From a virus (lineage: Duplodnaviria > Heunggongvirae > Uroviricota > Caudoviricetes): a DNA stretch of 25,422 nucleotides. Made by a program: the position numbers and the translations under genes. The first letter of the stretch is position 1. Every line of letters begins with the position of its first letter. Shown here piece after piece: positions 709-24,823 of the stretch. The DNA is taken from the IMG/VR virus record IMGVR_UViG_2574180238_000002; one strand, 5' to 3'. The notes beneath the pieces are model-generated. The model was given only the letters and a program-made list of their open reading frames with translations, did no database searches and was not told the DNA's origin.

Positions 709-1485
709 TTACCATATCTGGCATGCGGTTTCGTTAAGAGGAACTCCGATCGCATTGCCAGCTTTTGTTTCATCAGGGTGTATCCATGCCATTTTCTTAT
801 CCAGATCGACCTGTGACCACTCAAGGTCTGTAACGTTGGAACGGCGAAGGCCTGTCGTGATTGCAAACATGACCACAGGGAAGAAGTGAGGAGCAATTTC
901 TGCAAACAGGCGCTTCGATTCCTCCTCTGTAAGCCATCTGATGCGTCCATTCTTAACGCGTGGTGTTGATATTTTGGGTGCCCTGTCAAGCCATCCCCAT
1001 TCAACAGCCATATTGAGAATGGCGCGAAGTATTGCCAGATGCCTCGTCTTCGTTCCTTTGCTTGCAAGCTTTGGTTTATACTCCGGCACCGGATTGCCAA
1101 GTCGCAAACACCTGTCCCGGCTCATCTCCCAGTTCAGGCGATGGCGGCGGTTTTCCATCCCATCTACCGCCTCCATTATTTTTTCTGTTGTTATGTCAGA
1201 GAGAATGGCTTCTCTGAAGTGCAACATCCAGAACGATATAATGCTCTTGTCATCATCAATGGACTTCTTATCCGATTTCTCACGCAGCCACCGTATGCAG
1301 GCTTCCTTGAATAGCTTTTTCGGTGATTCCCCGAGATTTTTTACTCTCCACGCTTCTGCTTTCAGACGATCGTGAAGTTCTTGCGCTTGCCTTTTGTCCG
1401 ATGTTTCAAGAGAGCGTCTAACTCTTGATCCATCTGGCGCGACGAAATCGCAGTGCCACGTGCCACCGCGTAGTTTGATTGACAT
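709..1485 (-). pseudogene. int: P22-family tyrosine integrase, C-terminally truncated by IS1
   Basis: 258 aa; N-terminal and core-binding region resemble lambdoid/P22-type Int (DKRQAQELHDRLKAEAWR...TGLRRSN). ORF stops inside the IS1 terminus at 709-713, so the catalytic H-x-x-R and Tyr region is missing. Strong RBS AGGAGG upstream of ATG at 1485. Confidence 0.8.
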
Positions 1486-4246: not shown

Positions 4247-4540
4247 TCAGTCATTACTGATAGCGCCATAGCGTGAGCGGTAATTACGCAGGCGCGGGTC
4301 AATTTCAGGGAAGTGGGTATATGTGGCTTTGCGGAATGGTCGGATTGATGTCTGGTAAATTCGCTCGCGTTCTTCTTTCTCTGCGAGCCATATACAATGG
4401 CGAAATTCCTTTTCCTCTTTCGTTTCCTGCGGTAGCGACATTATCCGGTCGTAGTTTTTTCTGAATTTATCCAGCACCTCCGATACGGAATTGCCGGAAC
4501 AGCGGCGCGGGTCATCCGCACTATACAGAGGCGCTGGCAT
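4247..4540 (-). CDS. hypothetical protein (uncertain)
   Basis: 97-aa ORF, charged composition, no clear SD; sits at the presumed deletion junction just upstream of the gp20-like gene. Confidence 0.3.
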   Translation of the reverse strand: MPAPLYSADDPRRCSGNSVSEVLDKFRKNYDRIMSLPQETKEEKEFRHCIWLAEKEERERIYQTSIRPFRKATYTHFPEIDPRLRNYRSRYGAISND

Positions 4541-4586
4541 TGGTGCTGGTATCGGATTGCTTGGCTCGTTGTTTTAAGGGGTAATC

Positions 4587-5993
4587 ATGGCTACTTGGCA
4601 AGGAACAAACGGCGGATTGTTGGCTGGTATCGGCGGCGTCAACTCAAACGCTCCGAGCGTAAATGACATCGGCAATACGCTTCAGCTTATCAGGCAGAAC
4701 AATGATATTGAGCGTTCAGGCGCTAACAATGTTGGACTGACGGCCTTGCAAGGTCTTTCAGGTATTGCGGGTGTTTTTCAGCAGGAAAAGCAGGCTCAGC
4801 GGCAGAAAGAATTTCAGCAGGCATACGCTAATGCTTATGCGTCTGGTGATCGCGGTGCTTTGCGTCAGTTGGCTACTCAATATCCAGACCAGATTGAATC
4901 CGTTCGTAAAGGCATGGGATTCATTGATGAAGACCAGCGTAATTCTATCGGTACATTAGCGGCTGGGGGGGGGGGTGGGGCATCGTCTCCAGAAGCAATG
5001 CAATCATGGCTGCAAAATAACGCCAAGGAACTGACTCGCGTCGGTGTTGACCCTAATAACGTTGCTCAGATGTATCAGCAGAATCCTTCAGGATTTGGTG
5101 AGTTTGTTGATCACCTTGGAATGGCTGCTCTTGGTCCGATTGATTACTTCAATGTTCAGGACAAGATGGCTGGTCGTGAGATTGATCGCGGAAAACTTGC
5201 AGAGACAATCCGCAGCAATCAGGCTGGTGAAGCACTTCAGGCGAGAGGGCAAAACCTTTCCTATCAGTCAGCAATGACTGGGCACAATATCGCAGCACAA
5301 CGCTTGGCCCTGGATCAGCAAGAGTTCGGGTTTAAGATGCAGCAAGCGCAGGAAAAGGCTCAGCAGTTGATTAGCGAAGCACCTAAGCTGTCAGTAAACA
5401 TGGAAAAAGGCATCGAGACGGCTGTAAACAATGCCACAGCATCATCAAACTCAGCCAATTCCATGAGTGCGCTTGCTCAACAGTTCAGAGCAGAAAAACC
5501 AACGACAGGTTTGTTCGGTAACGCACAGAACATGTTCGCAAAACTTACCGGAAGCGATACGACATTGCGTGATTTGCGCATTCGCCAAAATGCCCTTGTT
5601 AACAGTCAGGTTCTTAAATTCCTACCTCCCGGCCCAGCAACGGATAAAGACGTTGAGATCGTTCGACAGGGTGCGCCAACTGACATGGATAACCCTGAGA
5701 CGGTCGCAAGATGGCTTGATGCAATGGCAAACCTTGAGCGACGAAACGCGCAGTTTAATGAGTTTAAAGCTGAGTGGATGAGCGCGAATGGCAACCCTGG
5801 ACAATCGCGTAATGGCGGTCAGATATTGGGGTTGGATGTTAAAAAAGGTGAATCATTGGGGAGTGCCGTTAAGCGGTATATGTCATTGAATACTGACGCA
5901 GCGCCAGCACAAGATTCGATACCTTCAGGAGAACCACGGAATCAGGTTGGATCATATACCTCAAAATCAGGCATTCAATTTACGGTGGAATGA
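4587..5993 (+). CDS. P22 gp20-like ejection (DNA transfer) protein
   Basis: 468 aa with AAGGGG RBS. Size and position (before a ~610-aa protein, followed by an Mnt-like gene and tailspike) match the gp20-gp16 pair of P22-like phages. Assigned by synteny and size, not sequence recall. Confidence 0.7.
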
Positions 5994-7837
5994 TGAAAGT
6001 AACTGCAAACGGTAAGACATTTACCTTCCCTGATGGTACGAGCACGGAAGATATTGGATCTGCCATTGATGAGTATTTTGCTGGACAGTCTGTTCAGCAA
6101 CAAACTGTCAGCCAGGATAGCAATGAACCAGCACGTGAAGAACCATCATTGATGCAACAAGCTGGCGATTGGCTCACTGGTGGTCAAAGTGCAGGGCAAA
6201 TTGCTGAACAGGCTGGTCGTGGTCTGGTAAACATACCATTTGACGTATTGCAGGGTGGTGCAAGTCTGATTAATGCAATCAGCCAGGGGCTTGGTGGCCC
6301 AAAGGTTTTGGATGATGTTTATCGTCCAGTAGATCGACCAACAGACCCTTATGCGCAAGCTGGAGAAACAATTGGCGGGTATTTAGTTCCAGGAGCTGGA
6401 ACGGCAGGAAGCATGGCTATTGGATCACTGGCAGAGGCCGCAAATCAGAAAGGCGATTTCGCACAAAATGCAGCCAAAAATGCCGGAGTTAACCTTGCCG
6501 CTCAGGGTGTTCTTTCCGCAGCAGCAAAGGGAATAGAGCGTGGAATAACGGCTATAAAAGGTGATATTGCGCCAGAAGTGGCGAAGAAAATTGCCACATC
6601 AGAATCGATGGGCGTGACACCAATGACATCTGATGTTATCCCGCCGAAAAATGCTTTCACTCGTGGCCTTACTCAGGATGCCGAGGGTGCTTTGCTCGGG
6701 ACAGGCTCAAAGCGAGCGGAGCAATATGCAACGCGTAGTAAACTGGTAAGCAATTATTTTGACCGTTTTGGTGAGTATAACCCTGATGATGTGGTGAAAT
6801 CTCTGACCACCACGTTAAGGGGGAGGAAGGATGCCGCTGGCGCTGTTATCAATGACGTCACCAATAAAATGGGTAATGCCGCAGTTGATACCACAAATAC
6901 CATGAATGCTCTGAATACAGCGATCGCAAGACAGGAACGGCTTGGGACGTCTGCCAATCAAAGCCTGCTTACATCCTTGCGTAACCTACGTGAAGAATTA
7001 GCAAACCCTGCAACTGATTTGGATGTTACGTTTGATCTCTTGCGTCAGCACAGAACAGCATTTAGATCTAATGTTCAGGGAGATGCTATGGTCTTCCCCA
7101 ACCAGGCAAAAGCAGCTACCAATATGGTAGAGAATGCAATGTCAAAAGACCTTCGTAACGCAGTTGCTAAAAACCTCGGTGCATCAGACGCAGCAAAATA
7201 CCTTAAAGCAAATTCCGATTATGCAAACGTTTATAATAAGGTGCTTAATAAAAACATTGCTAACAAGCTCAACAAGGCAAGCAGTGAAGCCAGTCCTGAA
7301 CTTATAAATACCGTTGTATTAAGCAGAAAACCATCTGACGTGAAACGAATCTGGAGCGCACTGGATGATAAAGGGAAAGATGCTATGCGTGCAGCTTACG
7401 TCAGCAAAATAGCGGAAAAGGCCGGTGACTCTCCAGCCAAGTTCATCACTGAAGTTAATAAGCTGAAATCTCAGTCAGGCGGTGAAATTTACAACACTAT
7501 TTTTTCTGGAAAGCACATGAAAGAGCTTGATGCTCTTCATGAAGTTCTACAGCAAACAGCAAGGTCAGACACCGCAAATGTAGTAACTCAGACGGGGCAA
7601 TCGCAAGCCAACAGGATAAGGACGATTGGCGCAACTGCGACCCTTGGCGTATCAATGGGGCTTGAGGCTGGTTTTGGTGCAATGATGCGCTTGTATGAGT
7701 CCAAAGCAGCAAGGAATGCTCTCTTACGCCTGGCAAACACTAAAACTGGAACGCCAGCTTATGAAAGAGCGCTAAATAATGCTGCAAATGCGATACGCCC
7801 TATACTTTCAAGCCAAATTACAGCAGAACAGCAATAA
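5990..7837 (+). CDS. P22 gp16-like ejection (DNA transfer) protein
   Basis: 615 aa; ATGA overlap with the upstream gene; size matches P22 gp16 (~609 aa); synteny with mnt-like gene and tailspike. Confidence 0.7.
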
Positions 7838-7851
7838 AAGATAAGATATAA

Positions 7852-8337
7852 CTACCTGATATTACTGCTACTGTTGCATGTTACCGTGTTTCCAAATCCT
7901 GAATTGCAGTTTGTATATGTGTCAACGCGTGTTGGGTAAGGTTGAGTTATAACAGGCTGGCGCGCTTTTTGCTCGATCGCTTGCATTGTGTTTACAGCCT
8001 GATAATTCAATAAAGCCTGCTGGAATGCTTGGCTTTGCGCTATTTGTTGGGCTTGCTCTTGGCTTTGTAATTGAACATAAAGATTTTGAAGCTCAAGTCT
8101 TGCCTGTGCGTCACTTATCTTACCTTCATCAACACCTTGCCCGAGCATCTTTGCGGCAAGGACATACAGCTTAGGTGTTGGTGCAGACGCCATGCGTGAG
8201 TCGTTCTTCACACTGGCATCAAGGCAATTAGCCATATCGCTAAGCTTTTGATAGCGTTGTTCGCAACTTGCTTGATAGTCACTTACTTTTGCGCATCCAA
8301 CCAGAAGAAGCGGGATAATTAACAGTGATTTTTTCAT
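7852..8337 (-). CDS. lipoprotein in the sieA-equivalent position
   Basis: ATG at 8337 with AAGGAG RBS; MKKSLLIIPLLLVGC is a signal peptide with lipobox; Gln-rich C-terminal half. Confidence 0.6.
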   Translation of the reverse strand: MKKSLLIIPLLLVGCAKVSDYQASCEQRYQKLSDMANCLDASVKNDSRMASAPTPKLYVLAAKMLGQGVDEGKISDAQARLELQNLYVQLQSQEQAQQIAQSQAFQQALLNYQAVNTMQAIEQKARQPVITQPYPTRVDTYTNCNSGFGNTVTCNSSSNIR

Positions 8338-8407
8338 ATGGTTAACTCTCCTTAGTTTTTCACAGGATATCATGAAGGCAATGCCATTTTAGCCGGAAAC
8401 TAGATTT

Positions 8408-8674
8408 CTATGTTTCCTTTTTATTATTGCTATACATGGTCTTAAGCGTTTCAAAAACCATTTTCTTAACCATATCAGATTGTTGTTCTGCCATACGCTC
8501 TGCATCGTCAATGTAAACTGATGCAGAGCTTTGTTTAGCCAATGATTCTTCAATCGCTGCAATTATCTCTGAGTTCAGCGACCTGTTATTCATCTTCGCG
8601 CGCTGTTTAATTTTCGCGTGGAGTTCATGCGGAAGTCTCAAGTGAAACTGCGCCTCGTCGTATTTGCTGTACAT
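8408..8674 (-). CDS. mnt: Mnt-like ribbon-helix-helix repressor
   Basis: 88 aa from ATG at 8674; aligns by eye with remembered P22 Mnt (..NGRS.NSE...DAER.A..QS..VKKMVF.TLK..Y). Confidence 0.7.
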   Translation of the reverse strand: MYSKYDEAQFHLRLPHELHAKIKQRAKMNNRSLNSEIIAAIEESLAKQSSASVYIDDAERMAEQQSDMVKKMVFETLKTMYSNNKKET

Positions 8675-8795
8675 CCTTGATGCCTCACCAGTTGGGTGGA
8701 ATGGCATCGTAACCTACTGGATAAATACTCAATAGTACCATTTCTGTATGCAATCACATCATGGTTGCATCATATCATTCGTCTGGAGCAATGAA

Positions 8796-10613
8796 ATGTC
8801 AGATATCACCGCAAATGTTGTGGTAAGCATGCCTTCTCAACTCTTCACTATGGCTCGTTCTTTTAAAGCTGTAGCCAATGGCAAAATTTATATCGGTAAA
8901 ATTGACACTGACCCGGTAAATCCTGAAAACCAGATTCAGGTTTATGTGGAGAACGAAGACGGCTCTCACGTTCCTGTATCGCAGCCAATCATCATTAACG
9001 CTGCCGGATATCCTGTATATAACGGACAGATTGCCAAATTCGTAACTGTGCAAGGCCATTCTATGGCTGTTTATGATGCATATGGGGCGCAGCAGTTCTA
9101 TTTTCCTAATGCGTTGAAGTGTTCCCCTGACCAGGGAATTATCAGGTTAAAAGAAGAAATTGCGAAAGATGATGGAGAGAAATATATCGGAATATGCCCT
9201 GACGTTTCTACACTCAGAACAATTGAGCCATCATTCGTCGGGCAAAATATAACTGTTCGTGGATACTACTCTGACACACCCGGGCTTGGGGGAGGAACGT
9301 TTATAGCCTTTTCCAGTTCTGAAGCTGACGATGGTGTGAATATTTTTGTTACCCCTGGCGGTAAGCGATGGAAGAGAGCAGGAAGCCACATCGATATTCC
9401 GGTAGAGAACGGTGGCATGATGACATCATGTACGGCTGAGCAAAACAGTGAAGCCTTTGAACGCCTGACTGCATGCCTTCCATATGAAGGAGGTACGCTC
9501 AGACTCAATGGATTTTACGGTATTAAGTATGGCGCTATCGTGCCTCCACGTGTCACGCTGGAGGGGTGCGGTATGGATTCCTGTGGATTAATTAAAACAG
9601 GTAACGATATTAAAACCGTTCCGGATCGCATGTGGCAGGGTGTACCACACAGCTTCTCCAAAGACTTTATTGTTGCGGTAGATATGGATAGTGACACATC
9701 AGGTGATTTAAGCGGGACACAAACAAGAAGCACCAGAATAATTGGATTGAGTATTCTAAATACTGCGCCCAATCCTTGTGATTACGGGATATATAGCGCT
9801 ATCAGTTACAATGTGCGCCTTCAGGACCTGTATATTCATAGGGTGAAAACCGGTTATCGCACTAGTGATAGTTGGTTGCAGACATGGGAAAACATTACTA
9901 TTCAGGATGTCGTTACTGGAGTTAAAATCGAAGCAGGTGGAACCACATATAATTTAAACAATATTTATGTGAAAACATGTTCAGGTGTTGCATATGATTT
10001 TAATAACATTACATATAGCAGCCTGACTTGTTTGGCTGCTGACTTCGTTAATGGTACTGGCTATAAATTTAAAGATTGTACTGGAGTGAATCTATCTGGA
10101 TGCGGAAGCGAAGAAGGCACTGGTAAAATATTTGATATAAATGGTAGTCGAATTAACGTAACTGCATTTAGAGGGGTTAATCATCATGATGGAGGAGTTG
10201 AAGCTGTATCTCTGGAATCGTGTTTCATCTCATTGGTTTCATCTCATTTTTCTAGTTACTCTGGAGTCTCATCTAGCAAATACATATATCTTAATAATGC
10301 AACTGCAAATTTTAATGGTACGGTAATTCCCGACAACACCACTGATTCTATTAGATGGGGTAGTGCGCAGAGCAGGATCAACAAGGTTGATTCAGGCGGC
10401 ACCTATAGTATAACCGGAAACTCATCATGGACTGCATTATGCAGACTTGAGTCAGGATATATAACGGTTCTATCAGTATCACCACCCACGGGAGATACAA
10501 CTAATTTCCCGTTTGGCACCAAGTGGGAATTGCTTGGTCAGGTTTATACCGGACCGTGGAAGTGGACATACGTATCAACTGGTGAATGGAAGGTATCCGC
10601 AACTACCACGTAA
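8796..10613 (+). CDS. tailspike with P22-type head-binding N-terminus and divergent receptor-binding domain
   Basis: [11 protein letters not shown]...[35 protein letters not shown]...[11 protein letters not shown] matches the remembered P22 gp9 N-terminal ~110 aa; the rest does not resemble P22 gp9. GGAG RBS. Confidence 0.85.
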
Positions 10614-10640
10614 AAAAAAGGGGCTTTCAGCCCCTTTTTA
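10612..10640. terminator. bidirectional rho-independent terminator
   Basis: aaaaaaaa-ggggct-ttc-agcccc-ttttta: perfect 6-bp GC-rich stem flanked by A-run and T-run, between convergent tailspike and acyltransferase genes. Confidence 0.65.
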
Positions 10641-10641
10641 T

Positions 10642-11685
10642 CTAATATCTGAATTTGTTTGATATCTTTTTCCCAATATCCATTGCTGGTTTTTCTATCG
10701 CAATAAATGATATCAGTCCAGCAATAAGTGATAGTGCTATGCATAAAACTTGATTTAAGTACAGGTTTATATCAGGTAATAACCTGAATGTTATCTGCTG
10801 TATTAAAAAGCCCCACAAGTAAACGCCATATGACACATCATGTTTTATTCTTACTGATTTTATTATTTTTGTTGTTGATAAATACACGAAAAATGTACAT
10901 GCGCAAAAGTAAAAAAGCATATGCTTGAGTGTTGGGTCTGACACAAAATTATATAATATTGCAAATCCTATTGGTGCATGTGGTGAAATGTATATTTTGT
11001 CCTTGTTTATAGCATACAATGCGCCAAGAGCAAAGCATGGAGCCATTAAAAACACATCTGCATTATCGTTATTTATAAAAATTAATTTGTTCCATCCCAA
11101 TACTGGAAGCGCTATTATTGATAAGCATATGATGCTAGGTATTATTCTTCCTCTGCTCTGAGTTATCATGTAGCATGCTAGGAGCACGACATAAGATGCA
11201 ACTTCATATGGTATTGTCCATAAGGAACCATTAACTGATCTTTTATATATATTTTCCTCAAAAACACCAGGAAGAAAAAATTGCATATCCAAATATGAGC
11301 TTTTAAATAGATAGCTGTACGTCAGTGTATCTTTTAAATAAGATGTCATTGAGTGCGTTGTAAGTAATGGTCCAACAATGAATGTCGCGAATAATAAAAC
11401 AAAAATGAATGCGGGGAATATTCTAAAAAATCTAGATGAAATAAAGTGTGGTATGTTGCGCGTTGTTAATAAACTATTAGTTACAAGCATTCCACTAATA
11501 AAGAAAAATATTTTTACAGCAATGGAACCAGTATATGTAAATGTGAAAACAGACTGAACCGGCTCCTGGGCTCCATCAGAATTTGCAAGATAATATGAAT
11601 GGGCAAATATTACAGAAATTGCACAAAAAATACGTATTAAGTCAAGGTTATTGTTATCCCTTTTTAGCGCATCTTTGACCAACAT
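10642..11685 (-). CDS. integral-membrane acyltransferase family 3 protein (O-antigen acetyltransferase-like)
   Basis: 347 aa from first ATG; multiple hydrophobic segments; N-terminal motif ...LDLIRIFCAISVIFAHS typical of acyltransferase-3/Oac-type enzymes; visibly AT-rich; sits where P22-like phages carry O-antigen conversion genes. Confidence 0.7.
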   Translation of the reverse strand: MLVKDALKRDNNNLDLIRIFCAISVIFAHSYYLANSDGAQEPVQSVFTFTYTGSIAVKIFFFISGMLVTNSLLTTRNIPHFISSRFFRIFPAFIFVLLFATFIVGPLLTTHSMTSYLKDTLTYSYLFKSSYLDMQFFLPGVFEENIYKRSVNGSLWTIPYEVASYVVLLACYMITQSRGRIIPSIICLSIIALPVLGWNKLIFINNDNADVFLMAPCFALGALYAINKDKIYISPHAPIGFAILYNFVSDPTLKHMLFYFCACTFFVYLSTTKIIKSVRIKHDVSYGVYLWGFLIQQITFRLLPDINLYLNQVLCIALSLIAGLISFIAIEKPAMDIGKKISNKFRY

Positions 11686-12075
11686 AAAAATCACCTAACT
11701 GTTTATTTTGAAGAGCATTGTATCATCAGATAGCCGCACTTTCACTCCCATCAGATCACCGTCAGAAATTATCATAAGCGCCAGTTCATCATGTGCAATT
11801 GCGTGCAAACAAAATATTCACTGCAGAGAGATTAAGTAGATTGATTCTACTGGGTTGGCATGAGACAAAACTGAGACACAGAAAGCTTTGCACTGGATTG
11901 CAAGGCTTTGTGCTCTCCTGTGGATGTGTGTCTACATGTTTGAAGATTGTTGTGCCGTATTTGTGACATACGCATGACAACATCATGCATCAACTTTCTG
12001 TTTGTGCCATCAACTATAGCTTAGTGAATGCGGTTAATGCTTGCTAAAACAGATAGTTATGATTGGTGCTACAGA

Positions 12076-12121
12076 TTCGTAATGCGAAGGTCGTAGGTTC
12101 GACTCCTATTATCGGCACCAT
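12076..12121 (+). other. partial tRNA-Thr 3' segment (anticodon loop to CCA): central att site of the tandem array
   Basis: ATTCGTAATGCGAAGGTCGTAGGTTCGACTCCTATTATCGGCACCA matches the 3' 46 nt of tRNA-Thr(CGU) as remembered; upstream bases do not form the tRNA 5' half, so this is not an intact gene. Confidence 0.7.
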
Positions 12122-12726
12122 CAAGAAAATCAATAACTTAGCTTAACTTCTCTAAGAAATTGTATCTTCTGTTATCACTTACAAACGCCTATACGTTGTT
12201 ATGGGCTTTGGTAGTGTAACACGTATGGGCGAGTAGTTCCCAGGCTCAACCTCGTAACAAGTTCCTTTGAAGCTGGAAGACGTGCCACCGTCTCTAAACC
12301 TTCTACCAAAACTCTTAGCAAGATGTTCCACACCTGGCGCGGTGTCCAATGATGCTACACGTCGTGAGACGTTGCAGAGGATAAACAGGCTAAATGATGG
12401 GAAGAGTTTTAAGTGCAATAGTGGATCAAAGCCCACCTCTTCAAAACCTAACTTGATCGGGAAAGAATCAAGCTCTAGCACGGTTTCGTCCACCGGAGTA
12501 CAACGGGTGCCTGATAAGAGAAGAACTGCTAAGACTTCATAGCTTTTGTGAAAAAGCCCTTTTTAGTGGATACGCCTACGGCGCTTATTTTTTGGTATAA
12601 CCATCAAAGGCGCTTTATGGCTCCTATTGTCTTGAAAATGTATCTTTACTTGTATTGTGTTTTATGCGTAGTCTCCCTGTGTAGTATGTAACTTGTTAAT
12701 TTTCATATGAATACAGAGGCAACACG

Positions 12727-12879
12727 ATGAAAAACATTGCAGCTATAAAACGTAATAACCGCAAGATTCACGCTCGTAAGTTCCTGTCTACGCCAGAAGG
12801 AAAAGCCTGGCTAGAGCGTAAACAGAGAGAGAACGAAGAAAGAAAACTCCTTAGTGAGTTGAAATGGCTTAAGGATTGA
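12727..12879 (+). CDS. small basic protein (50 aa), uncertain
   Basis: MKNIAAIKRNNRKIHARKFLSTPEGKAWLERKQRENEERKLLSELKWLKD; not in the ORF track (below its length cutoff); followed by a long hairpin. Confidence 0.3.
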   Translation: MKNIAAIKRNNRKIHARKFLSTPEGKAWLERKQRENEERKLLSELKWLKD

Positions 12880-13429
12880 ATCACCAGTAGGCGCATAACA
12901 CATCCAGCGATCAAAGATGTGTTTATGCGCCTGATAGTGAAATTATTAAAGTTTTTTAGTTAATGTAGCCATTGCATGAACGATGATCGCTAGTGAATCG
13001 ATTTTATCTCGAGGGGTAAAATAGATGAGGTATATGATGGTAACAATTACAGCTAAAGTAATTGTGGTTCTGCAGGTTTTTAAAATGGATAAGATAAAGC
13101 GCATAGATACCCCCTATTGATTTAACAACAATAAGGTATCATTTATTTTTTATTGCATGCAATGTGCAAATTTTCACATATAATAGCTTACTATTCACTT
13201 TGCATGGTGTCAACAAGATGATGTGTTGTTTTGTTTGATTTGTTCAAGATAATATTTCATTTTCTCATCTATATAACTTGTGTTTTAGATAATTTCACTA
13301 ATTGTAAAAGTTACGTATTGCTTAATAGCTGCCTTTTTATCTGAAATCGGCGCAAACGTGATCAATGTTTAACGCGAAGATCAGCGGCGTCAGGTCCACG
13401 CAGCGACAATTCTCAAATATCAGGAGGCA

Positions 13430-13981
13430 TTACGCTTCCTGCTCTTTCTTGATACGTTGCACCGTCTGTGTGCTGACACTGAAATCTTTTGCTACGCTCC
13501 GAATTGATCCACCATTCGCGAGAGCGGCAACAATTCCCGCTCGATCAATTGCTTTTCCATTACCACGTTTTGCTATACGTCCAGCGGCCTTAGCTGCGGC
13601 GATCCCCTCACGTTGCCGCTCAAGCATCATTTCACGTTCCATTTGTGCCACTGCTGCAAGCACTGTGAGCATCATATTCCCTGCGGGAGAGTTCTTCCCT
13701 GTCTTAAAGTCTTCTTTATGGAAATGCACAGACACGCCGCGCTCTGTTAATTGCTCAACCGTTGCCAGAAGGTCGGCTGTATTACGGCAAAGGCGATCAA
13801 TACTGTGAACATGCACAACATCACCTTCCCGCACATAGTTCATCATTGCCTCAAACTGTGGGCGCTGAGTGTTCTTGCCTGACGCTTTATCTTCAAAGAC
13901 TTTATCAAGAGTTACTCCAGCTAATTGACGGTCTGTGTTTTGTTGCACAGTCGATACCCTAATGTATCCAATATTAGCCAT
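13430..13981 (-). CDS. serine recombinase (resolvase/invertase family)
   Basis: MANIGYIRVSTVQQ... with the catalytic Ser context, DRL.R motif and C-terminal HTH (GGSIRSVAKDFSVSTQTVQRIKK); ~183 aa, typical of small resolvases/invertases; RBS 9 nt upstream of ATG at 13981. Confidence 0.8.
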   Translation of the reverse strand: MANIGYIRVSTVQQNTDRQLAGVTLDKVFEDKASGKNTQRPQFEAMMNYVREGDVVHVHSIDRLCRNTADLLATVEQLTERGVSVHFHKEDFKTGKNSPAGNMMLTVLAAVAQMEREMMLERQREGIAAAKAAGRIAKRGNGKAIDRAGIVAALANGGSIRSVAKDFSVSTQTVQRIKKEQEA

Positions 13982-14507
13982 TTTCATTTTCCTTCTGTGT
14001 TGATTTGTGTGTAGTGATTATTGATCGTGTTGATTAGGTGTGTAAAGGACTTTTTTCACTACGAAATTCGAAGGTTTTTAGTGTGGTGATTTAGCCTGCT
14101 TTATCACTACACGTCTTGCATGAGAATCATGTAGTTACATTTTGGTAAAATTAGCAAGCTATTAAATAGTGTGTTTATTTTGAAAAAATAATTTTTTGTT
14201 GCATTAAAGGAAACTTGTTCGACAAATAATAGATTGATTTTTAATCAACAATTTCTGATAGTGCTCTGTAAGCCGTATTACACAAGGCTTTGCGAAAGTG
14301 ATGTAAAAGTGAAGAAAGCTAACATTGCACTTTTTAAGCTACTTTTCATTGGATTTTTACGTAGGAATTACACAGGGATTAATCATCAATTACATTGAAT
14401 TTAAGCCTGTTTTAGATGTTTAATTTTGGTAGCAAGAAACACTTTTAGAAGATCATTGCACAGATGTTATGTGATAAATGGATGTAACGGTAGGTCACTG
14501 TGAACTA

Positions 14508-14644
14508 CCCCCACAGAATTCTGTTATCCTTAACTTTTAAAGAAATATGCACCCTAACAGAAAACTGTTACCCCAACCCTAACAGAATTATGTTAGATAC
14601 CCCCACAGAAAACTGTTAGCCACCCCTACAGAATTTTGTTACCT
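14508..14644. repeat. array of five ~23-bp iterons, each a TAACAG-N4-CTGTTA palindrome preceded by a C-run
   Basis: Cores at 14513-14526, 14557-14570, 14582-14595, 14605-14618, 14628-14641; four of the five start 23 bp apart. Confidence 0.65.
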
Positions 14645-14756
14645 ATTAGATCAACTATCAAACTACAATTAAATTATCTTTTATAAATTCTTTTATCTTT
14701 AAAGAATAATTAAGTGATACCCGTTAGGGAGTCTTCGACTATCCCTTAATCTATTG

Positions 14757-15033
14757 GCATTCGCCAGAACCTTGCACAAGTTAGAGTGTTAGTCGTTAGA
14801 CTGCTTGTCATAACACATAGTTTTTGTTTGTTGATGTTAGTTAGTAGATCTATGTTCGCTAATGCCGCTCACAACGAATATGTAATCTACTATGTGCAAA
14901 TAGCCTACGGCTTGCGTAAGGCTAAATAGTCTATGCGCTGTGCGCTTCAATAGTTCCATTGATGAGGCTTACGCCAATCTAACGATCATCAATCATCTAA
15001 AATAAATTTCTTGTGCAATGTTCTGGCGAATGC
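14757..15033. repeat. 24-bp inverted-repeat pair flanking a 229-bp segment
   Basis: gcattcgccagaaccttgcacaag (14757-14780) versus reverse complement of cttgtgcaatgttctggcgaatgc (15010-15033): 23/24 identity. Confidence 0.55.
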
Positions 15034-15339
15034 AATTAGAGTAGCGTTACCCCTTTGGGGATGCTAACGCATAACTATAGATCAACCATCAAACAGACAA
15101 AAAAGAAAAATATGGTTTAAAGATGTTAGGTAGTAGATGAGATTCTACCGCTTAAATCAAGCCGTAGGCGAGCTAAACAGCCTCTACATAAGGGAATGTA
15201 TTGTATTTATCAAAACCTCGTCAGAGGGCGTTTTAGAGCGTTTTAGAGAATAAGGAAGAATAGGAGCACTCTTAAGAGCACGAATTGCTAAGAAAAATTA
15301 TAACACACTGAAAATGATCAATATTTTTATGGCTAGGGG

Positions 15340-15368
15340 TTGACAAAAGCTTTTAGTCGTGGTAAAGT
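15340..15368 (+). promoter_or_regulatory. candidate sigma70 promoter for the 15492-17800 operon
   Basis: TTGACA (15340-15345), 17-bp spacer, TAAAGT (15363-15368). Confidence 0.4.
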
Positions 15369-15491
15369 AATATTAGGGACAGAAAACATTCTTATCCTCT
15401 AAGTAATTAAACCAATGCACCGCACTTTGAAGCCCAACAAGGCTTGCAAGGTGTTTTTTCTTTTAACCAAATAGAATAAGGAGGCTAATTA

Positions 15492-15668
15492 ATGAAATAT
15501 TTTACTCCACAGGATGTAGTTGAAGCCTGGAAACGTGGTGAGATTAATCGTTTTAAAGTAAGGATGAACAGGAACACAGCGCGACGCTGTGGTTATCCAG
15601 AGCGTGAAAAATGCTTTGACGATGCACTAAAAATTATTGATGAACTGCGTAAGGCAGAGAAAGAATAA
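15492..15668 (+). CDS. small protein (58 aa), unknown function
   Basis: Strong SD AAGGAGG upstream of ATG; MKYFTPQDVVEAWKRGEINRFKV...; first gene of a co-directional operon. Confidence 0.5.
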   Translation: MKYFTPQDVVEAWKRGEINRFKVRMNRNTARRCGYPEREKCFDDALKIIDELRKAEKE

Positions 15669-15689
15669 TAACAGGAGAAGGAGAAAACT

Positions 15690-15860
15690 ATGAGCGAAAC
15701 TACAGAAAAGAAAAGACAACCACGCACTTGCTTTCATATTCCTGATGAAGTATTTCAGGTGTTGTTTAAAGAAGCCAGAAGTAAACGTATCACTGTTACA
15801 GATTACATTCTTGATATGTTGAAAAGAGAGGCTGAAACACTCTCAAACAAAAGCAAGTGA
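15690..15860 (+). CDS. small ribbon-helix-helix-like DNA-binding protein (56 aa)
   Basis: SD AGGAGAAGGAG; sequence RTCFHIPDEVFQVLFKEARSKRITVTDYILDMLKRE fits a beta-strand then two helices as in CopG/Arc/ParG-type RHH proteins (by-eye secondary-structure pattern). Confidence 0.5.
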   Translation: MSETTEKKRQPRTCFHIPDEVFQVLFKEARSKRITVTDYILDMLKREAETLSNKSK

Positions 15861-15913
15861 TTTTTATCACCATAGTAGCGCCGTAGAGCGTGATTACATC
15901 AAGGAGATTTTTA

Positions 15914-16483
15914 ATGATTAATGAAGAACAATTTGTAAAAGTTCCTATGTGGATTCTAAAAATAAGCCAAGTAAACGGACATAAATTTACAGATAGTGCT
16001 AAAAACCTTTACTGCTATCTGAGAGGGTTTGATCGTGCATTTCCCTCTTACGCTAAGATAGGCGATGTTTTTGGCATAACACCAAGAGCAGCAGAAGAAA
16101 GGGTTAAGAAATTGCTCGAAATGGGATTAATTATAAAAGATGCACGACCAGGAAGCTCTAACCTTTATCGAGTGCTTGATATTCCAAAAGGAGAATCATC
16201 ACTACCTGATCCTTCTGAGAAAGAAGACGAATCTAATGAAATATTGAATGTTTCCGAAATCATCGTTGAAGAAGAAACACAAGAGCCAGAGTTCCCTGAG
16301 CGGCCCGAAATTTTTACTTGGCTTCTTTCCCTTGATAAGAAGAAACCACCGCACGAAGAAACAGAAGATTTTGTAAAACGAGCATTAGATTCAAAGAATA
16401 TCTATCTTTGTGAAAATGATTTTGACTCTTTGATAATTGATCTCAAAAGTGAGAGCACAATATATGATTCACTACCCTTCTAA
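15914..16483 (+). CDS. predicted winged-helix DNA-binding protein with acidic C-terminal tail
   Basis: ATG at 15914 with AAGGAG RBS; N-terminal ~90 aa has a wHTH-like pattern (..AKIGDVFGITPRAAEERVKKLLEMGLI..); C-terminal half highly acidic. Confidence 0.55.
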   Translation: MINEEQFVKVPMWILKISQVNGHKFTDSAKNLYCYLRGFDRAFPSYAKIGDVFGITPRAAEERVKKLLEMGLIIKDARPGSSNLYRVLDIPKGESSLPDPSEKEDESNEILNVSEIIVEEETQEPEFPERPEIFTWLLSLDKKKPPHEETEDFVKRALDSKNIYLCENDFDSLIIDLKSESTIYDSLPF

Positions 16484-16492
16484 GGAGAATAA

Positions 16493-16750
16493 ATGACTTA
16501 TAACATCACTATAGGAAACAAAACTATTGAAATAACTGAAAGCGGATACAACATTTTAAAAGCTATTTTGGACATAGAGTTTTCACCACCGACAGTGGTT
16601 AGCTTTTGTAGTTTAGGCGGCTACAGCGCACAACACGTAAATCATTTTACATCGTTCGGTGTGCTGGATTATGAAGGGATTAACAGCACTACATTTCGTC
16701 TTTTGAAATTAAACAAAGATTTTGAATTGTTTCTCACAAACAATCAATAA
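16493..16750 (+). CDS. hypothetical protein (85 aa)
   Basis: AAGGAG RBS; same-strand operon context. Confidence 0.5.
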   Translation: MTYNITIGNKTIEITESGYNILKAILDIEFSPPTVVSFCSLGGYSAQHVNHFTSFGVLDYEGINSTTFRLLKLNKDFELFLTNNQ

Positions 16751-16847
16751 CAACAGATCGGGCAATACATATGGCAAATGCATTTATGGCGATATTCATC
16801 GTAACAATGGCGTCCAGTTTTTATAATCCACATAAAAAGAGGGAAAA

Positions 16848-17231
16848 ATGGGAAGAAAGAAAAAGAACAACTTAAAACGTATTGAAAAAAACAGTAATTT
16901 CAATTCAAAAAGACAACGTCCACCGACACACACCAATAACGAAATTCCAGGGGAAGAGATAATCTTTATTCTTGAAACAGAATCCCCTGAATTAAGTGAT
17001 GAAGAATTAGAAATAATCCAATCAATGCCAGGCGTTTACTTTCGCCCAAGAACAAGAAAACAAACTATCATTTCTGATGGCACTCTGAAACGTTGGCAGC
17101 TTTTAGGGTTTAGCTCCTATCATCATTTTTTGGGATTTAACGCTTTCAATAATTGTGTAGGTGGTGCATCGGAAGTCGATCTGATGGCTCATTTAGAAGA
17201 TACATTAGCTTCTAACAAACGTTCTAACTAA
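16848..17231 (+). CDS. hypothetical protein with basic N-terminus and acidic middle (127 aa)
   Basis: RBS AGAGGG; N-terminal Lys/Arg-rich stretch followed by an acidic segment. Confidence 0.5.
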   Translation: MGRKKKNNLKRIEKNSNFNSKRQRPPTHTNNEIPGEEIIFILETESPELSDEELEIIQSMPGVYFRPRTRKQTIISDGTLKRWQLLGFSSYHHFLGFNAFNNCVGGASEVDLMAHLEDTLASNKRSN

Positions 17232-17246
17232 TAAAATGATGGGTGT

Positions 17247-17492
17247 ATGTATAAGCGCCCAATGAAAATATTCAAAAAAGGAAAAATAATGATTGGCTAT
17301 ATTCAAGAAACACAATTATTTCAGATGATCCTGTCTGATGCAAAAAACTATGCAGAGTTAATTCGGCTGGCAAAAGAAACAGAAGACTACGAAGCATTAG
17401 AGCGTTACCGTGATGAAGTGCTGACGCTCAAGACACCTTTTAACATCGTATTGAATATGATTAATGATGCATTACAAGGAGAATACGCATAA
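17247..17492 (+). CDS. hypothetical protein (81 aa; alternative start at 17289)
   Basis: ORF with better RBS (AAGGA) before the internal Met at 17289; stop overlaps the next start (ATAATG). Confidence 0.45.
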   Translation: MYKRPMKIFKKGKIMIGYIQETQLFQMILSDAKNYAELIRLAKETEDYEALERYRDEVLTLKTPFNIVLNMINDALQGEYA

Positions 17493-17800
17493 TGGAAGAA
17501 GATATTAGCAATGCAATGGAACAACTTTTAGAACTGACTATCTCACTACAAACAAGAATAAATCAAGCCTATTCAGATTTATGCGATTACACGCTCTCTC
17601 AATGCGTTATTAGCTTAATGAAGGTGAATGTAAGCCTTGACGATTTTATCTCTCTTGGGAGCGATTTAGAGCTATCAGAGGACGATGCAAAACAGTGTAA
17701 TCAAATCATCACAGACATCGCCACCACGTTAAAGGTTGCAAGTGAAGAGATTCAGCAATTAGTAGATGATTTAGCAAAAAGTGCTATTTTCTCTAAATGA
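17492..17800 (+). CDS. strongly acidic small protein (102 aa)
   Basis: AAGGAG RBS; about 19 Asp/Glu versus about 6 Lys/Arg by count. Confidence 0.5.
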   Translation: MEEDISNAMEQLLELTISLQTRINQAYSDLCDYTLSQCVISLMKVNVSLDDFISLGSDLELSEDDAKQCNQIITDIATTLKVASEEIQQLVDDLAKSAIFSK

Positions 17801-18642
17801 TAATGAAAATTATTTGCATTTATAATGATTTTGTTATATAATAATTTTAGGGGTAGATAAAAAGATTTTAGTTGGTGTTAATCCTTCTACTGTCATAAAT
17901 CCCTGCATATGGAAGGTGATAGCCTCAAAGGTTGAGTGGCATTAACCTCTAACAAATATTACCTTCCATCTCTCAAGAAGTTTTAGAATAATCATAACTC
18001 CCTCTTTGATTGTTGATTGTTTCTACGTTGTGTTGATGAATGTTGTTAGGCATTGTGCTTAATTTTGATAAAAGCGGGTAGGTGTTATCTCCTTGCCCTT
18101 CCCGCTCTTATTTTTCATCTATGCTTATCCTAAAGCTCCTTATTTTGTCAGAAAACATTAAAGAGCCTTACACTGATAGTTATATTTTATAACTATTTAC
18201 TAACATCATTAAACTATTATTTAATGACAGAAGTTAGTAACAGAATAATCTATTAAGTTGTTGTCAAAAACAATCATCTGCATAGCGTTAGCCGCAAGCA
18301 GAGAGAGTTTAGCTAAGAATGGTGCAATAAACTTTGGAAATATTGATAGCAAAACGGGTTTTATAGAATGCGGATCTATAAGCTTTGGTTGTAAAAACGA
18401 TTTTCTGAAACGGTAGATTACTGTTGGTGTAGTTAATCATTATTAAAAATTTAATCTGTGAGTAGATTGGAATAGTGATTCCTTAAAATCTGACTGGTGC
18501 ATCCACACCATGAAAGATAGCGGTTGGCCACCGCGCCCCGAATAGATATTCCTGATTGATTCCGCATGTTTTCCTAAGAGCATGTTTTCAGGAGTATCTA
18601 TTCACCCTTTAAGCATATCATCAAGTATATTTAAAAAGTGTA

Positions 18643-18671
18643 TTTGCTGATATGTTTAATCCTCTTATAGT
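18643..18671 (+). promoter_or_regulatory. candidate sigma70 promoter for the 18785-23366 operon
   Basis: TTTGCT (18643-18648), 17-bp spacer, TATAGT (18666-18671); weak -35, good -10. Confidence 0.3.
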
Positions 18672-18784
18672 TTAACTTATCAATTATGTAATTGCCCGCA
18701 CGTTAAAGCCCCTTTGCTGGTCAGAATTAACCTCTTACGGCATTGGGGCTTTTTATTTGTCTGGCACTAACAGGAACATTATTT

Positions 18785-18982
18785 ATGAAACAAGAAATGA
18801 TTATCAGCAAAGACGGGGAAACGATGATTGTTAGTGATGAAAACCTCATTAAGGTTGCCGCACTGTTGGGAGTTACTCCCGAAAGTCTTCGTTCTACCAC
18901 TGCTCAATTATTTAAATCGGCTGATGCGGTTAGTCTTGCTGATGCCCTTAAATCTAAAATTAAACAACTGAAAGGAAAATAA
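18785..18982 (+). CDS. hypothetical protein (65 aa)
   Basis: AGGA RBS before ATG at 18785; first gene of the second operon. Confidence 0.45.
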   Translation: MKQEMIISKDGETMIVSDENLIKVAALLGVTPESLRSTTAQLFKSADAVSLADALKSKIKQLKGK

Positions 18983-18986
18983 TCTT

Positions 18987-19370
18987 ATGGCTAACCCATA
19001 TGGAAAATTAAAAGCAGTGAATGCGGATAACTCCCGTTCACGCTGTAAGGTAGTAGCTTACGCTGCTGATCCAGTGCTGCAAGATCGCCTCGTCAAACTG
19101 GCTTCACCTCTCACTGACGATCTTATTGTCGGGGCTTTGCTGAAAGCCGATGGCACCAAAGCAACAACCGCATCTGATATTGCTCACGTAGTAGTTGAAC
19201 CGGCTTATGAAGGACAGGAAAGCGTAGTGGTTGCACATCCTACTTTCGTTATTCTGGCTGAAGATGGGATTGAATTTAACAGCATGGAAAAGGCAAGTGT
19301 TATTGCAAAACTGCAATCTCTCGGCTTTGTAATTGCTGGTTATGAAGAACTTGCGATCCCTACGACTTAA
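18987..19370 (+). CDS. hypothetical protein (127 aa)
   Basis: AAGGA RBS; tightly spaced with neighbours (4-14 nt intergenic). Confidence 0.55.
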   Translation: MANPYGKLKAVNADNSRSRCKVVAYAADPVLQDRLVKLASPLTDDLIVGALLKADGTKATTASDIAHVVVEPAYEGQESVVVAHPTFVILAEDGIEFNSMEKASVIAKLQSLGFVIAGYEELAIPTT

Positions 19371-19384
19371 CAAGGAAAATAATA

Positions 19385-20416
19385 ATGAATGATTTATCAA
19401 CATATTTTGGCGTTAATACTGCGGTAGTAACTCCATTTGCTTATGAGAATGCACTTAATACCCTGATTACTAATCTCGATCTGTTCGATGTGCAATATCA
19501 TACAGAAAACAGCATTCTTCTTACCGACCTGATTGATCAGTTTGTGCAGGTAGCTGGGGAAACCTCGCCTTACGCTCAAAGCGACTGGAACGCCTCTAAA
19601 CGTCAGGAATGGTCAAACAAACTTTTCCAGATGAAACACGTCGGCAGTATTAACGCTGTTACTTCTCGTGACCTGGAACAATACAGCCGCCAATATCCAA
19701 ACCGTTCTGATGCTATGCTGGTAGCGGTTAATGATTTCTCTGAGGCTCATTACCGTTCACACGCAAACCGTGTTGAAGTGGATCTGATTACCGCGCTGCT
19801 GGGCCTGAAAGTTGAATCTGAATATGCCGGACAAGGTGATCTCGACTTCCTCGACGGTCAGGCTAAAACCACGGTACCCGCTATCGACTTTGCATCGACT
19901 ACTGTTAACCCGTTCCTTGCTATTCGTAAAGCGGTGCGCTTACAGAGTGAAAAGCTGGGGTCTGGTCTTGCTGCAAAGCGAACTGGTGTAATTATCTTTG
20001 CTGCTGGCACTGCTGCTGATGGTTTGTCATCTAACCCGCTGATCAGTGACATGGTGAAATATGCAGGCGATGCGAGTGCTACGGCCCTGTTTACCCGTAT
20101 GGTTGATTCTAACCCAGCCTATGACTCTTTCCAGATTGGTGGGATCACTGTTATTGATGTGTCAATGTTTCCTGAGATTGTTGCTCACATCGGAGAGAAC
20201 GGTTTCGCAATTGTTCCGGTAATGGATAAAGCGGCACAGTGTTACCAGCTTCATAGCGGCGTTGGTGTGCGTCATGCTGAGTTAGGTCAAGATGCCGTGT
20301 TGCATCACCAATATCTAATCAAGGATGAATTCCAATTCCCATCTGTGGTTACTGAGACATCTTATCTGCCAGTAAACAACATTCCGCAAGCTATCATCTT
20401 CGGATCTGCTGCGTAA
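19385..20416 (+). CDS. hypothetical protein (343 aa), function unknown
   Basis: AAGGA RBS; no signal peptide or recognisable catalytic motif by eye. Confidence 0.55.
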   Translation: MNDLSTYFGVNTAVVTPFAYENALNTLITNLDLFDVQYHTENSILLTDLIDQFVQVAGETSPYAQSDWNASKRQEWSNKLFQMKHVGSINAVTSRDLEQYSRQYPNRSDAMLVAVNDFSEAHYRSHANRVEVDLITALLGLKVESEYAGQGDLDFLDGQAKTTVPAIDFASTTVNPFLAIRKAVRLQSEKLGSGLAAKRTGVIIFAAGTAADGLSSNPLISDMVKYAGDASATALFTRMVDSNPAYDSFQIGGITVIDVSMFPEIVAHIGENGFAIVPVMDKAAQCYQLHSGVGVRHAELGQDAVLHHQYLIKDEFQFPSVVTETSYLPVNNIPQAIIFGSAA

Positions 20417-20567
20417 TAAAGCGTTAATAGACGATTCCCCATCGGGGCAATAAGGGTAAAGGGATTAACTAACCTGTAGGCGCAAATACAGTAACGAATC
20501 TCTTTGCCCTTTTTGTTTTTCTACTGTCTACAAACCCAAATAAAAATATATATGTGAGAGAAAACCA

Positions 20568-20765
20568 ATGAATACAGAAAACCCACAATCCTTTATTCTT
20601 AAAGCTGTAAAAGAACTGGCAGCTATTAGCGAGGAATCAGTTATAAACACATCGGCGCTTTGCCGCCTTTTAGAAATTGATGCAAATAATGTGCGCCAGC
20701 GTGTCTTTCAGACTGGGTGCAGCACTTTCGAAGCAATTCAATACTATTGCTCTAAAAAACAATAA
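20568..20765 (+). CDS. hypothetical small protein (65 aa)
   Basis: ORF in operon context; weak RBS. Confidence 0.4.
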   Translation: MNTENPQSFILKAVKELAAISEESVINTSALCRLLEIDANNVRQRVFQTGCSTFEAIQYYCSKKQ

Positions 20766-20799
20766 TAAACAACAATCATAATACAGGGAAACAATTAGC

Positions 20800-22641: not shown

Positions 22642-22688
22642 TCATCACTGTGGGGCTGTTTAGCCCCCTTAAATAAGGATTACAAATT

Positions 22689-23366: not shown

Positions 23367-23446
23367 CCTTAAACGCCTATGAAACGCTCTGTAACGAGAT
23401 AATCATAAAAGAGGCATCAGCCTATATTGAAGCCTCTTTATTACGT

Positions 23447-24724: not shown

Positions 24725-24823
24725 AAAATCTCCGGCTAAAGTGTCGGAGCGTTTGTAATGTGAAAATTGATTGTGACGCATAGAAAATGATGATTTTTCT
24801 ATAAGATTCAATCAATTAGTAAT

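Follow-up and report, generated by a model that had tools for sequence, protein, structure and literature searches.

Which polysaccharide does a P22-like tailspike recognise when its anchor is conserved but its receptor domain is not, and why is it followed by an acyltransferase gene? This question is raised by a viral DNA stretch of 25,422 nucleotides (Duplodnaviria; Heunggongvirae; Uroviricota; Caudoviricetes; IMG/VR record IMGVR_UViG_2574180238_000002), below referred to at its full length as the window, with a tailspike gene at positions 8796–10613. Among the textbook features of P22-like phages are a conserved anchor with exchangeable receptor domains and conversion genes that come after the tailspike gene. 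The explanation that we hold to be quite probable is that the gene encodes a P22-like (Lederbergvirus-type) tailspike of three exchangeable modules, most likely directed to the O107/O117 O-antigen of Escherichia coli and paired with an Oac-like seroconverting acyltransferase. It is a fresh example of a known phage design and no new kind of system.

Modular build of the tailspike

The open reading frame (ORF) can be opened by ATG codons at 8748 or 8796. The second one is preferred because it is preceded by a well-spaced Shine-Dalgarno motif (GGAG, 8 nt upstream) and provides the N-terminus common to P22 and Sf6 tailspikes. The borders 8796–10613 given in the preliminary description of this DNA, made from its letters alone, are correct with respect to the ORF and its start and stop codons. 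The protein has an exact match in NCBI (EZK10717.1 / WP_050439503.1), registered as ‘phage head-binding domain-containing protein’ of E. coli 1-176-05_S1_C3; the WP_050439503 / WP_050488506 cluster counts 53 members. Its gene is divided as follows.

8796–10613, plus strand: tailspike gene, 605 amino acids plus stop codon (10611–10613), defined by the ORF and Shine-Dalgarno site
8796–9134, plus strand: Module 1, residues 1–113, P22-type head-binding (virion anchor) domain, PF09008
9135–9185, plus strand: helical linker, residues 114–130, junction of the anchor and the foreign receptor domain; similarity to P22 ends at residue 113, similarity to STML-13-1 begins at residue 127
9186–9935, plus strand: Module 2, residues 131–380, small N-proximal beta domain and first two-thirds of the beta-helix, precomputed label PF27114 ‘Phage_tail_beta’
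10056–10610, plus strand: Module 3, residues 421–605, distal beta-helix rungs and C-terminal beta-sandwich, type I, common only to the VE-T9 / WP_050488506 cluster

According to the preliminary description, the first ~110 residues resemble P22 gp9 and the remainder does not. This is borne out on both sides. The Pfam domain Head_binding (PF09008) covers residues 1–113 with its full profile (E 7.8e-65), and 83 of these 113 residues (73%) are identical in P22 gp9 (NC_002371), 101 (89%) in Sf6 gp14. Past residue ~113 BLASTP registered no significant similarity to gp9 (E 0.42 for the best additional segment) and no homology to gp9 residues ~125–667, which form the endorhamnosidase receptor domain with Salmonella O:4/O:9/O:1 specificity; forced global alignment gave 18%. 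Full-length identity to gp9, named beforehand as the outcome contradicting the claim, was therefore seen neither by BLASTP nor on global alignment. The same border is found at the level of DNA. Thus, 27 phage records (HK620, Sf6, IME10, CUS-3, epsilon34 and others) match the gene at nucleotides 1–340 only, and the anchor-coding part is present in 1,108 of 5,426 complete E. coli genomes, with the whole gene in a single one, VE-T9. Sequence matches in PDB with entries 7sg7, 2xc1 and 1lkt are also confined to the anchor, which would plug the presumed tailspike trimer into a P22-type tail hub.

For residues 114–605 local Pfam profiles gave no match, and the PF27114 assignment of Module 2 comes from precomputed labels only. 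The sequence search in PDB returned nothing beyond the anchor and a small domain at residues 116–198, which matches residues 8–91 of tailspike protein 2 (TSP2) of CBA120. In the structure predicted by AlphaFold2 (AF2) the receptor domain is a right-handed parallel beta-helix, with a predicted local distance difference test score (pLDDT) of about 85–95 in Module 2 and a linker helix at residues 111–123, where model confidence is low. The model describes a monomer, and its head-binding part, having pLDDT below 50, was excluded from all inference. Among solved beta-helix depolymerases, gp86 of Acinetobacter phage Belisarius (24qi), gp42 of AS12 (6eu4) and CBA120 TSP2 (5w6p) are 15–18% identical to the tailspike and differ from it in substrates (capsules, O157 O-antigen) and anchors. 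Fusion of the head-binding domain to an unrelated receptor domain, modelled as a beta-helix, is confirmed on this evidence. Residues ~131–380 of the helix presumably form the core that binds and cleaves the polysaccharide: acidic residues E144, D178, E204, D290, D296, D298, D344 and D358 are invariant across the receptor-domain family, all belong to this core and can be considered as candidates for catalysis. The highly divergent distal part, residues ~421–605, would make the third module.

O107/O117 O-antigen as the likely target

The wzx–wzy genes of O107/O117 are found in 20 of the 5,426 complete E. coli genomes (0.37%). Receptor-domain DNA was detected by sensitive blastn in four (VE-T9, PSS-08-1, GZ2408P and APEC-O117H42), and all four are among those 20. 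The hypergeometric P value for this association is 1.3e-10, or 1.3e-5 if only two independent events are counted. In VE-T9, the only complete genome with the entire tailspike gene, wzx and wzy belong to the ‘O107/O117 family’. Since all four carriers hold O107/O117 wzx/wzy, the receptor domain is likely aimed at the O107/O117 O-antigen, and the exclusive association with such hosts favours the preliminary suggestion that its O-antigen specificity differs from that of P22. On infection it would bind and probably hydrolyse this O-antigen, letting the phage reach the outer membrane.

The correspondence between a prophage tailspike and the host O-antigen underlies a pipeline for Lederberg- and Uetakeviruses, and the logic leading from prophage to serogroup was already proposed in that systematic study (PMC10408124); for a prophage remnant of O104:H4 the match was shown by experiment (PMC3303846). 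Among the serogroups assigned in the abstract of PMC10408124, O107/O117 is missing, and our literature search for O117 together with tailspike gave no tailspike assigned to O107/O117.

All that separates the two serogroups is N-acetylglucosamine (GlcNAc) versus glucose (Glc), a difference caused by three substitutions within a single glycosyltransferase (PMC7685785). Between VE-T9 and APEC-O117H42, 13.4 kb of O-antigen cluster contain 6 nucleotide differences, and three amino-acid changes, L194R, S285P and A339T, fall into one GT4 glycosyltransferase (L019 9344–10405 versus L020 13254–14315). This count equals the reported one, and these changes may or may not be the O107/O117 switch; the VE-T9 allele comes from a new accession and could hold assembly errors. 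In the same genome wzzB, encoding the O-antigen chain-length regulator (L019 15326–16303), is listed in the annotation as a pseudogene interrupted by a stop codon, which could change the O-antigen length or represent an assembly error. APEC-O117H42 contains two tailspikes of the receptor-domain family in two different prophages (L015 6241–12948; L016 7001–10351). The first belongs to an argW remnant with truncated dsdC, in which the tailspike gene is accompanied by gtrABC and intS, and the second to a phiV10-like prophage with a 699-residue tailspike and an AT3 acyltransferase of 322 residues.

Receptor-domain family and its internal mosaic

In a large protein database we found 47 full-length relatives of the receptor domain with 45–99% identity and about 96–100% coverage; an alignment of 30 family sequences contains 87 invariant columns. 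Megablast of the receptor domain against 50,697 phage records detected no DNA homologue. tblastn of residues 114–605 against phage genomes gave one strong relative, a tail protein of 630 residues occupying the TSP1 slot of Kuttervirus phages STML-13-1, BRM 13313 and pSC20. Three types of anchor are used across the family: PF09008, PF18668 and a ~200-residue anchor 89% identical to that of Uetakevirus phiV10. The relatives anchored by PF18668 comprise TSPs of Ackermannviridae and proteins of ~45 kb contigs that bear a tape-measure gene.

The STML-13-1 protein (AFU64267) has a homologous receptor domain, 56% identical over residues 127–603 and 70% in the core, but PF18668 of Ackermannviridae replaces PF09008 and the distal third is 37% identical. 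All three Kuttervirus phages are lytic myoviruses devoid of a conversion gene, unlike the temperate P22-type context of the window. The tailspike of the window has PF09008 and resides in a P22-like prophage, so that neither the PF18668 anchor nor the four-TSP cluster of a ~157-kb myovirus, by which Ackermannviridae TSPs are recognised, was found for it. The passages of PMC8432352 devoted to host prediction name no receptor for TSP1 of the STML-13-1 type. Tailspikes of Uetakevirus (phiV10-like) prophages P0007, P0016 and P0028 have a receptor domain of the same family, 61–73% identical, and each is followed by an AT3 acyltransferase gene, as in the window; they differ in having the ~200-residue phiV10-type anchor instead of the head-binding domain, as well as other distal types and other AT3 genes. 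Recombination would have brought the receptor domain from a pool common to Uetakevirus-, Kuttervirus- and ~45-kb siphovirus-type phages.

Conservation is distributed along the receptor domain very unevenly. The core (residues 131–380) is 93–100% identical to that in tailspikes of sister P22-like prophages P0003, P0005, P0008 and P0010 and 70–82% identical to Uetakevirus and Kuttervirus forms. The distal part (residues 421–605) shows 97–99% identity inside its own cluster and 33–47% identity to all relatives outside it. DNA similarity to sister tailspike genes breaks abruptly at window positions 10054–10180, and this sharpness implies recombination rather than gradual drift. Judging from these comparisons, the mosaic build extends into the receptor domain, where a conserved core is followed by a unique distal third; five types of the latter can be distinguished.

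Type I: tailspike of the window, VE-T9, P0001
Type II: P0008, P0010
Type III: P0003, P0007
Type IV: P0005
Type V: P0013, APEC-O117H42 remnant, P0016, P0028, P0021, STML-13-1

Does the distal third participate in recognition? The C-terminal part of P22 gp9 mainly stabilises the trimer. If residues 421–605 were likewise a trimerisation or folding module, they could drift freely and all five distal types would have equal specificity, in line with the location of the family-invariant acidic residues in the conserved core and with the presence of O107/O117 clusters in hosts of both type I and type V. We treat this as a real but less probable option, since in the model variability begins within the beta-helix itself (about residues 381–480), that is in the usual groove region, and the modification gene differs from one distal type to the next. 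Moreover, the hosts VE-T9 (type I) and APEC-O117H42 (type V) are distinguished by those three residues of one O-antigen glycosyltransferase, a difference like that between O107 and O117 (PMC7685785).

Acyltransferase gene behind the tailspike

Two features adjoin the stop codon of the tailspike gene.

10614–10640: bidirectional intrinsic terminator, AAAAAAAAGGGGCTTTCAGCCCCTTTTT, read from the sequence between two convergent stop codons
10642–11685, minus strand: AT3-only membrane acyltransferase, predicted Oac-type O-antigen O-acetyltransferase (PF01757, phrog_3333, Oac homology)

The hairpin at 10614–10640 is a perfect bidirectional terminator, which was missed by the consensus terminator scan and found by direct reading; in Sf6 a terminator is annotated at the matching place between the tailspike gene and oac. 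The promoter scan gave 12 hits versus 13.9 expected from shuffled sequence, and no promoter is claimed. The acyltransferase gene is convergent with the tailspike gene and lies beside the att site, in the same slot and orientation as oac of Sf6. Its product consists of 347 amino acids if translated from the ATG with the Shine-Dalgarno motif AGGTGA, or of 350 from the upstream GTG. PF01757 matches residues 15–327 of 350 (E 1e-24) and there is no fused SGNH domain; phrog_3333 (O-acetyltransferase) is matched with E 9e-37, and identity to Oac of Sf6 makes up 27% over 93% (E 2e-23). Multiple hydrophobic segments are present, as well as the motifs R18-X10-H29, F60-F-F-I-S-G65 and R85-F-F-R88, whose R, H, F, G and R do not vary across an alignment of eight acyltransferases. 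Their counterparts, R/K-X10-H in transmembrane helix 1 (TMH1), FFXISG and RXXR, are essential in Oac, OafA and OafB (PMC7448272). Thus, the acyltransferase announced next to the tailspike in the preliminary description is indeed there.

By analogy with the Sf6 and P22 paradigm, one may suppose that the enzyme converts the antigen recognised by the tailspike. In a lysogen it would O-acetylate the O107/O117 antigen, and this seroconversion would keep phages with the cognate tailspike from re-adsorbing and superinfecting, as do oac of Sf6 and gtrABC of P22. The literature search found no report on O-acetylation and resulting seroconversion for O107/O117.

Joint transfer of tailspike and modification genes

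The region shared with other prophages extends over both genes.

8442–11916: mobile cassette, comprising part of mnt, the tailspike gene, the terminator, the acyltransferase gene and ~230 bp beyond (blastn, differing flanks)

By blastn, this segment is 98.7–98.8% identical to contigs L013 and L014, in which the flanking prophage genes are different. The match with VE-T9, in the same range of identity, spans window positions 8844–11916, again within differing flanks, and VE-T9 is the only one of the 5,426 genomes with this acyltransferase gene, which it carries together with this tailspike. A similar situation is observed for type III, where a block of 2,431 bp, which starts at tailspike residue ~160 and ends 50 bp beyond its AT3 gene, is common to a P22-like and a phiV10-like prophage at 97.2%. 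The tailspike and acyltransferase genes therefore move together as a cassette of ~3.1–3.5 kb between prophages. Being adjacent between conserved flanks, receptor domain and modification gene would be exchanged jointly. The serotype-conversion pair supposed in the preliminary description gains support from this co-transfer, from homology to Oac, from the slot and orientation shared with Sf6 oac and from the intact motifs.

Certain details outline the edges of the cassette. A segment of ~60–90 bp past the acyltransferase gene (11853–11943) is 86–100% conserved behind unrelated conversion modules (L006, L008, L015) and occurs in ~1,470 E. coli genomes, while its portion 11853–11917 closes the slot in several prophages; it may act as the right-hand arm of homology when cassettes are exchanged. 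An HNH endonuclease gene of VE-T9 (L001 11430–11888) is situated between the Arc-family gene and the tailspike gene. It stands exactly where homology to the window resumes (8844), which suggests insertion at the left boundary of the cassette.

An O-antigen-type modification gene was found directly downstream of the tailspike at each of the eight temperate family loci examined, and its nature varies with the distal type. The partner of type II is an AT3 acyltransferase 49% identical to that of the window, types III and IV are accompanied by unrelated AT3 genes co-directional with the tailspike, and type V by gtrABC or a third AT3. This variety permits a different view of the acyltransferase, which appears to us rather unlikely: an unrelated moron in the variable slot near att, inactive or directed to another substrate, whose co-transfer reflects adjacency alone. 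Indeed, receptor domains 71–77% identical (96–99% in the cores) precede the 49%-identical AT3, an unrelated AT3 in the opposite orientation or gtrABC; the GC (guanine plus cytosine) content of 32.5% in the acyltransferase gene versus 42.5% in the receptor domain suggests their separate origins; and AT3 proteins modify many different glycans, as is stated in PMC9558356. Contrary to this view, the modification gene occupies its place in all eight loci without exception, distinct distal types go with distinct modification genes, the matching slot in P22 and Sf6 is filled by proven conversion genes, and homology to Sf6 Oac is combined with intact essential motifs.

The same data can be taken further, to a scheme that we also put forward with considerable doubt. 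In it the variable unit is the distal third of the tailspike together with the neighbouring gene(s) for O-antigen modification, the cassettes of this kind on a single O107/O117 backbone number at least five, and they reflect an arms race of phage against phage. The combinations would be I with AT3-A, II with AT3-A′, III with AT3-B, IV with AT3-B′ and V with gtrABC or AT3-C, circulating among P22-like and phiV10-like prophages. If this is true, the modification introduced by each lineage shuts out its rivals, distal variants are tuned to the backbone (Glc versus GlcNAc) or to its modification state, and O107/O117 comprises several hidden sub-serotypes.

Arguments against the proposed target and pairing

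Several circumstances weigh against the explanation given at the outset. The association with O107/O117 comes from four complete genomes, three of which (PSS-08-1, GZ2408P and APEC-O117H42) share one argW remnant, in which the distal variant is another, and may go back to a single event; moreover, it was drawn from complete genomes other than that of the window’s own strain. Cleavage, substrate and acetylation are all proposed here entirely by computation, and a shallow alignment of the head-binding part made its model poor. To our knowledge, published repeat units of O107/O117 carry no O-acetyl group. The best PHROG for the tailspike is phrog_8280, ‘tail spike protein with colanic acid degradation activity’. 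Finally, at least five other modification modules accompany related receptor domains, and mere physical linkage within a slot prone to recombination may account for the pairing. Because of these other modules the pairing should be understood as one of slot and linkage, with no fixed partner. A single tailspike–acyltransferase pair inherited throughout the family was rejected, as the sister receptor domains come with unrelated AT3 genes or with gtrABC.

Colanic acid degradation was rejected as the function of the tailspike: the label exists in annotation only and the phrog_8280 score is dominated by the anchor domain. That the receptor domain is directed to some polymer other than O107/O117 (colanic acid, a capsule or another O-antigen) and the serogroup link is a sampling accident seems to us improbable, for, against this label, the capsule depolymerases of Acinetobacter phages as nearest solved folds, the perhaps two independent events behind four genomes and the isolation of Kuttervirus relatives on Salmonella, there stand the origin of the phrog_8280 score mostly in the head-binding domain, the occurrence of all four carriers in a serogroup found in 0.37% of genomes, the two different prophages with family members in APEC-O117H42 and the binding of O-antigens by P22-like tailspikes characterised so far (PMC3303846, PMC2629481).

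Relation to P22, Sf6 and the O104:H4 remnant

The tailspike gene is positioned as in Lederbergviruses, past genes 20/16 and immI (mnt) and before the O-antigen conversion gene and att. With P22 the locus shares the gene order (genes 20/16, mnt, tailspike, O-antigen conversion genes, att), the head-binding domain compared above, the beta-helix plan and an identical att core. It differs from P22 in the receptor domain, unrelated in sequence, in the acyltransferase replacing gtrABC, in the absence of an ant/arc pair and in being a remnant. The closest characterised architecture is that of Sf6 gp14 and Oac, with the most similar head-binding domain, a convergent AT3-only acetyltransferase gene downstream and a terminator in between; the receptor domain of gp14 is unrelated (17% on forced alignment), Oac has diverged to the extent given above, and Sf6 integrates at argW with int beside oac, whereas the remnant in the window uses a P22-type att site.

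Another close parallel is the remnant of the O104:H4 outbreak strain (Scholl et al. 2012, PMC3303846), where a P22-like tailspike is also retained in a deleted prophage. Its first 113 residues are ~79% identical to P22, the C-terminal domain is novel and was shown to confer O-antigen specificity, and a gene for a presumed O-antigen acetylase is kept just downstream of the tailspike (PMC3303846). The receptor domain there is another one, and its target O104 was established by experiment, while O107/O117 is predicted here.

Prophage remnant and its surroundings

Other features of the window are listed below.

1–698: IS1 with transposase ORF 195–698, abutting and truncating the integrase gene
709–1485, minus strand: truncated phage integrase gene, detected by the C-terminal part of its catalytic domain alone
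4530–4586: deletion joint, start of abc2 (minus strand) against the last ~45 nt of gene 7 (translated as ...GIGLLGSLF and stop), from blastn, translation of the gp7 C-terminus and Pfam
4587–7837, plus strand: genes for ejection proteins, homologous to genes 20 and 16 of P22 (PF16928; phrog_770 DNA transfer protein, E 1e-279)
7852–8373, minus strand: predicted lipoprotein of 173 residues with lipobox LLVGC and Gln-rich middle (phrog_6067, E 2e-110; no Pfam match)
8408–8707, minus strand: Mnt/Arc-type repressor gene of the immI region (PF03869 and PF11423), divergent from the tailspike gene as in P22
12075–12120: attR core, right end of the prophage, reading as the 3′ end of a tRNA (GGTTCGACTCC...GGCACCA), by blastn to P22
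13430–13987: resolvase, in the low-GC island
22689–23366: Dit-like protein, in the low-GC island
23447–24811: tyrosine integrase, in the low-GC island

The integrase gene is followed by xis, ea genes and abc2, after which the prophage is interrupted. Matches to P22 on the two sides of the joint (26685–26923 and 10011–10280, blastn) place the fusion at ~4530–4540, and about 25 kb of a P22-type genome are missing there, including recombination, immunity, replication, lysis, head and tail genes. Genes 20, 16 and mnt, as well as those for lipoprotein, tailspike and acyltransferase, are kept. The lipoprotein gene occupies the slot of sieA in P22 and is a possible candidate for a superinfection-exclusion gene. 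The 46 bp of attR are 100% identical to P22 positions 21293–21338, which span the annotated attP core (21300–21322), and no complete tRNA was found in the window. The prophage is, consequently, a deletion remnant of ~11 kb at a P22-type att site, unable to make virions. For this reason the tailspike cannot be assembled into virions here and is left as an intact relic, and the acyltransferase alone could still work for the host.

Past the att site lies an island of low GC content (33–37%) with its own integrase (12121–24811). It includes many ORFs without Pfam matches, one of them coding for 613 amino acids (20800–22641), and many E. coli genomes have it at 97–99% identity. In strain 19451123, too, it comes after a P22-like prophage, which has a different tailspike and gtrABC.

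Biological meaning

The interest of this locus is modest and concerns the assignment of the tailspike family to O107/O117, the internal mosaic of the receptor domain and joint transfer across genera. The first, likely as it is, gives a concrete serogroup of E. coli to this family, and strains of O117 include avian-pathogenic isolates such as APEC-O117H42. The receptor domain would provide a ready binding module for typing reagents or retargeted pyocins, and a related antigen is predicted as the target of TSP1 in Kuttervirus STML-13-1. For phages themselves it means that the receptor domain and the modification gene can move jointly between genera.

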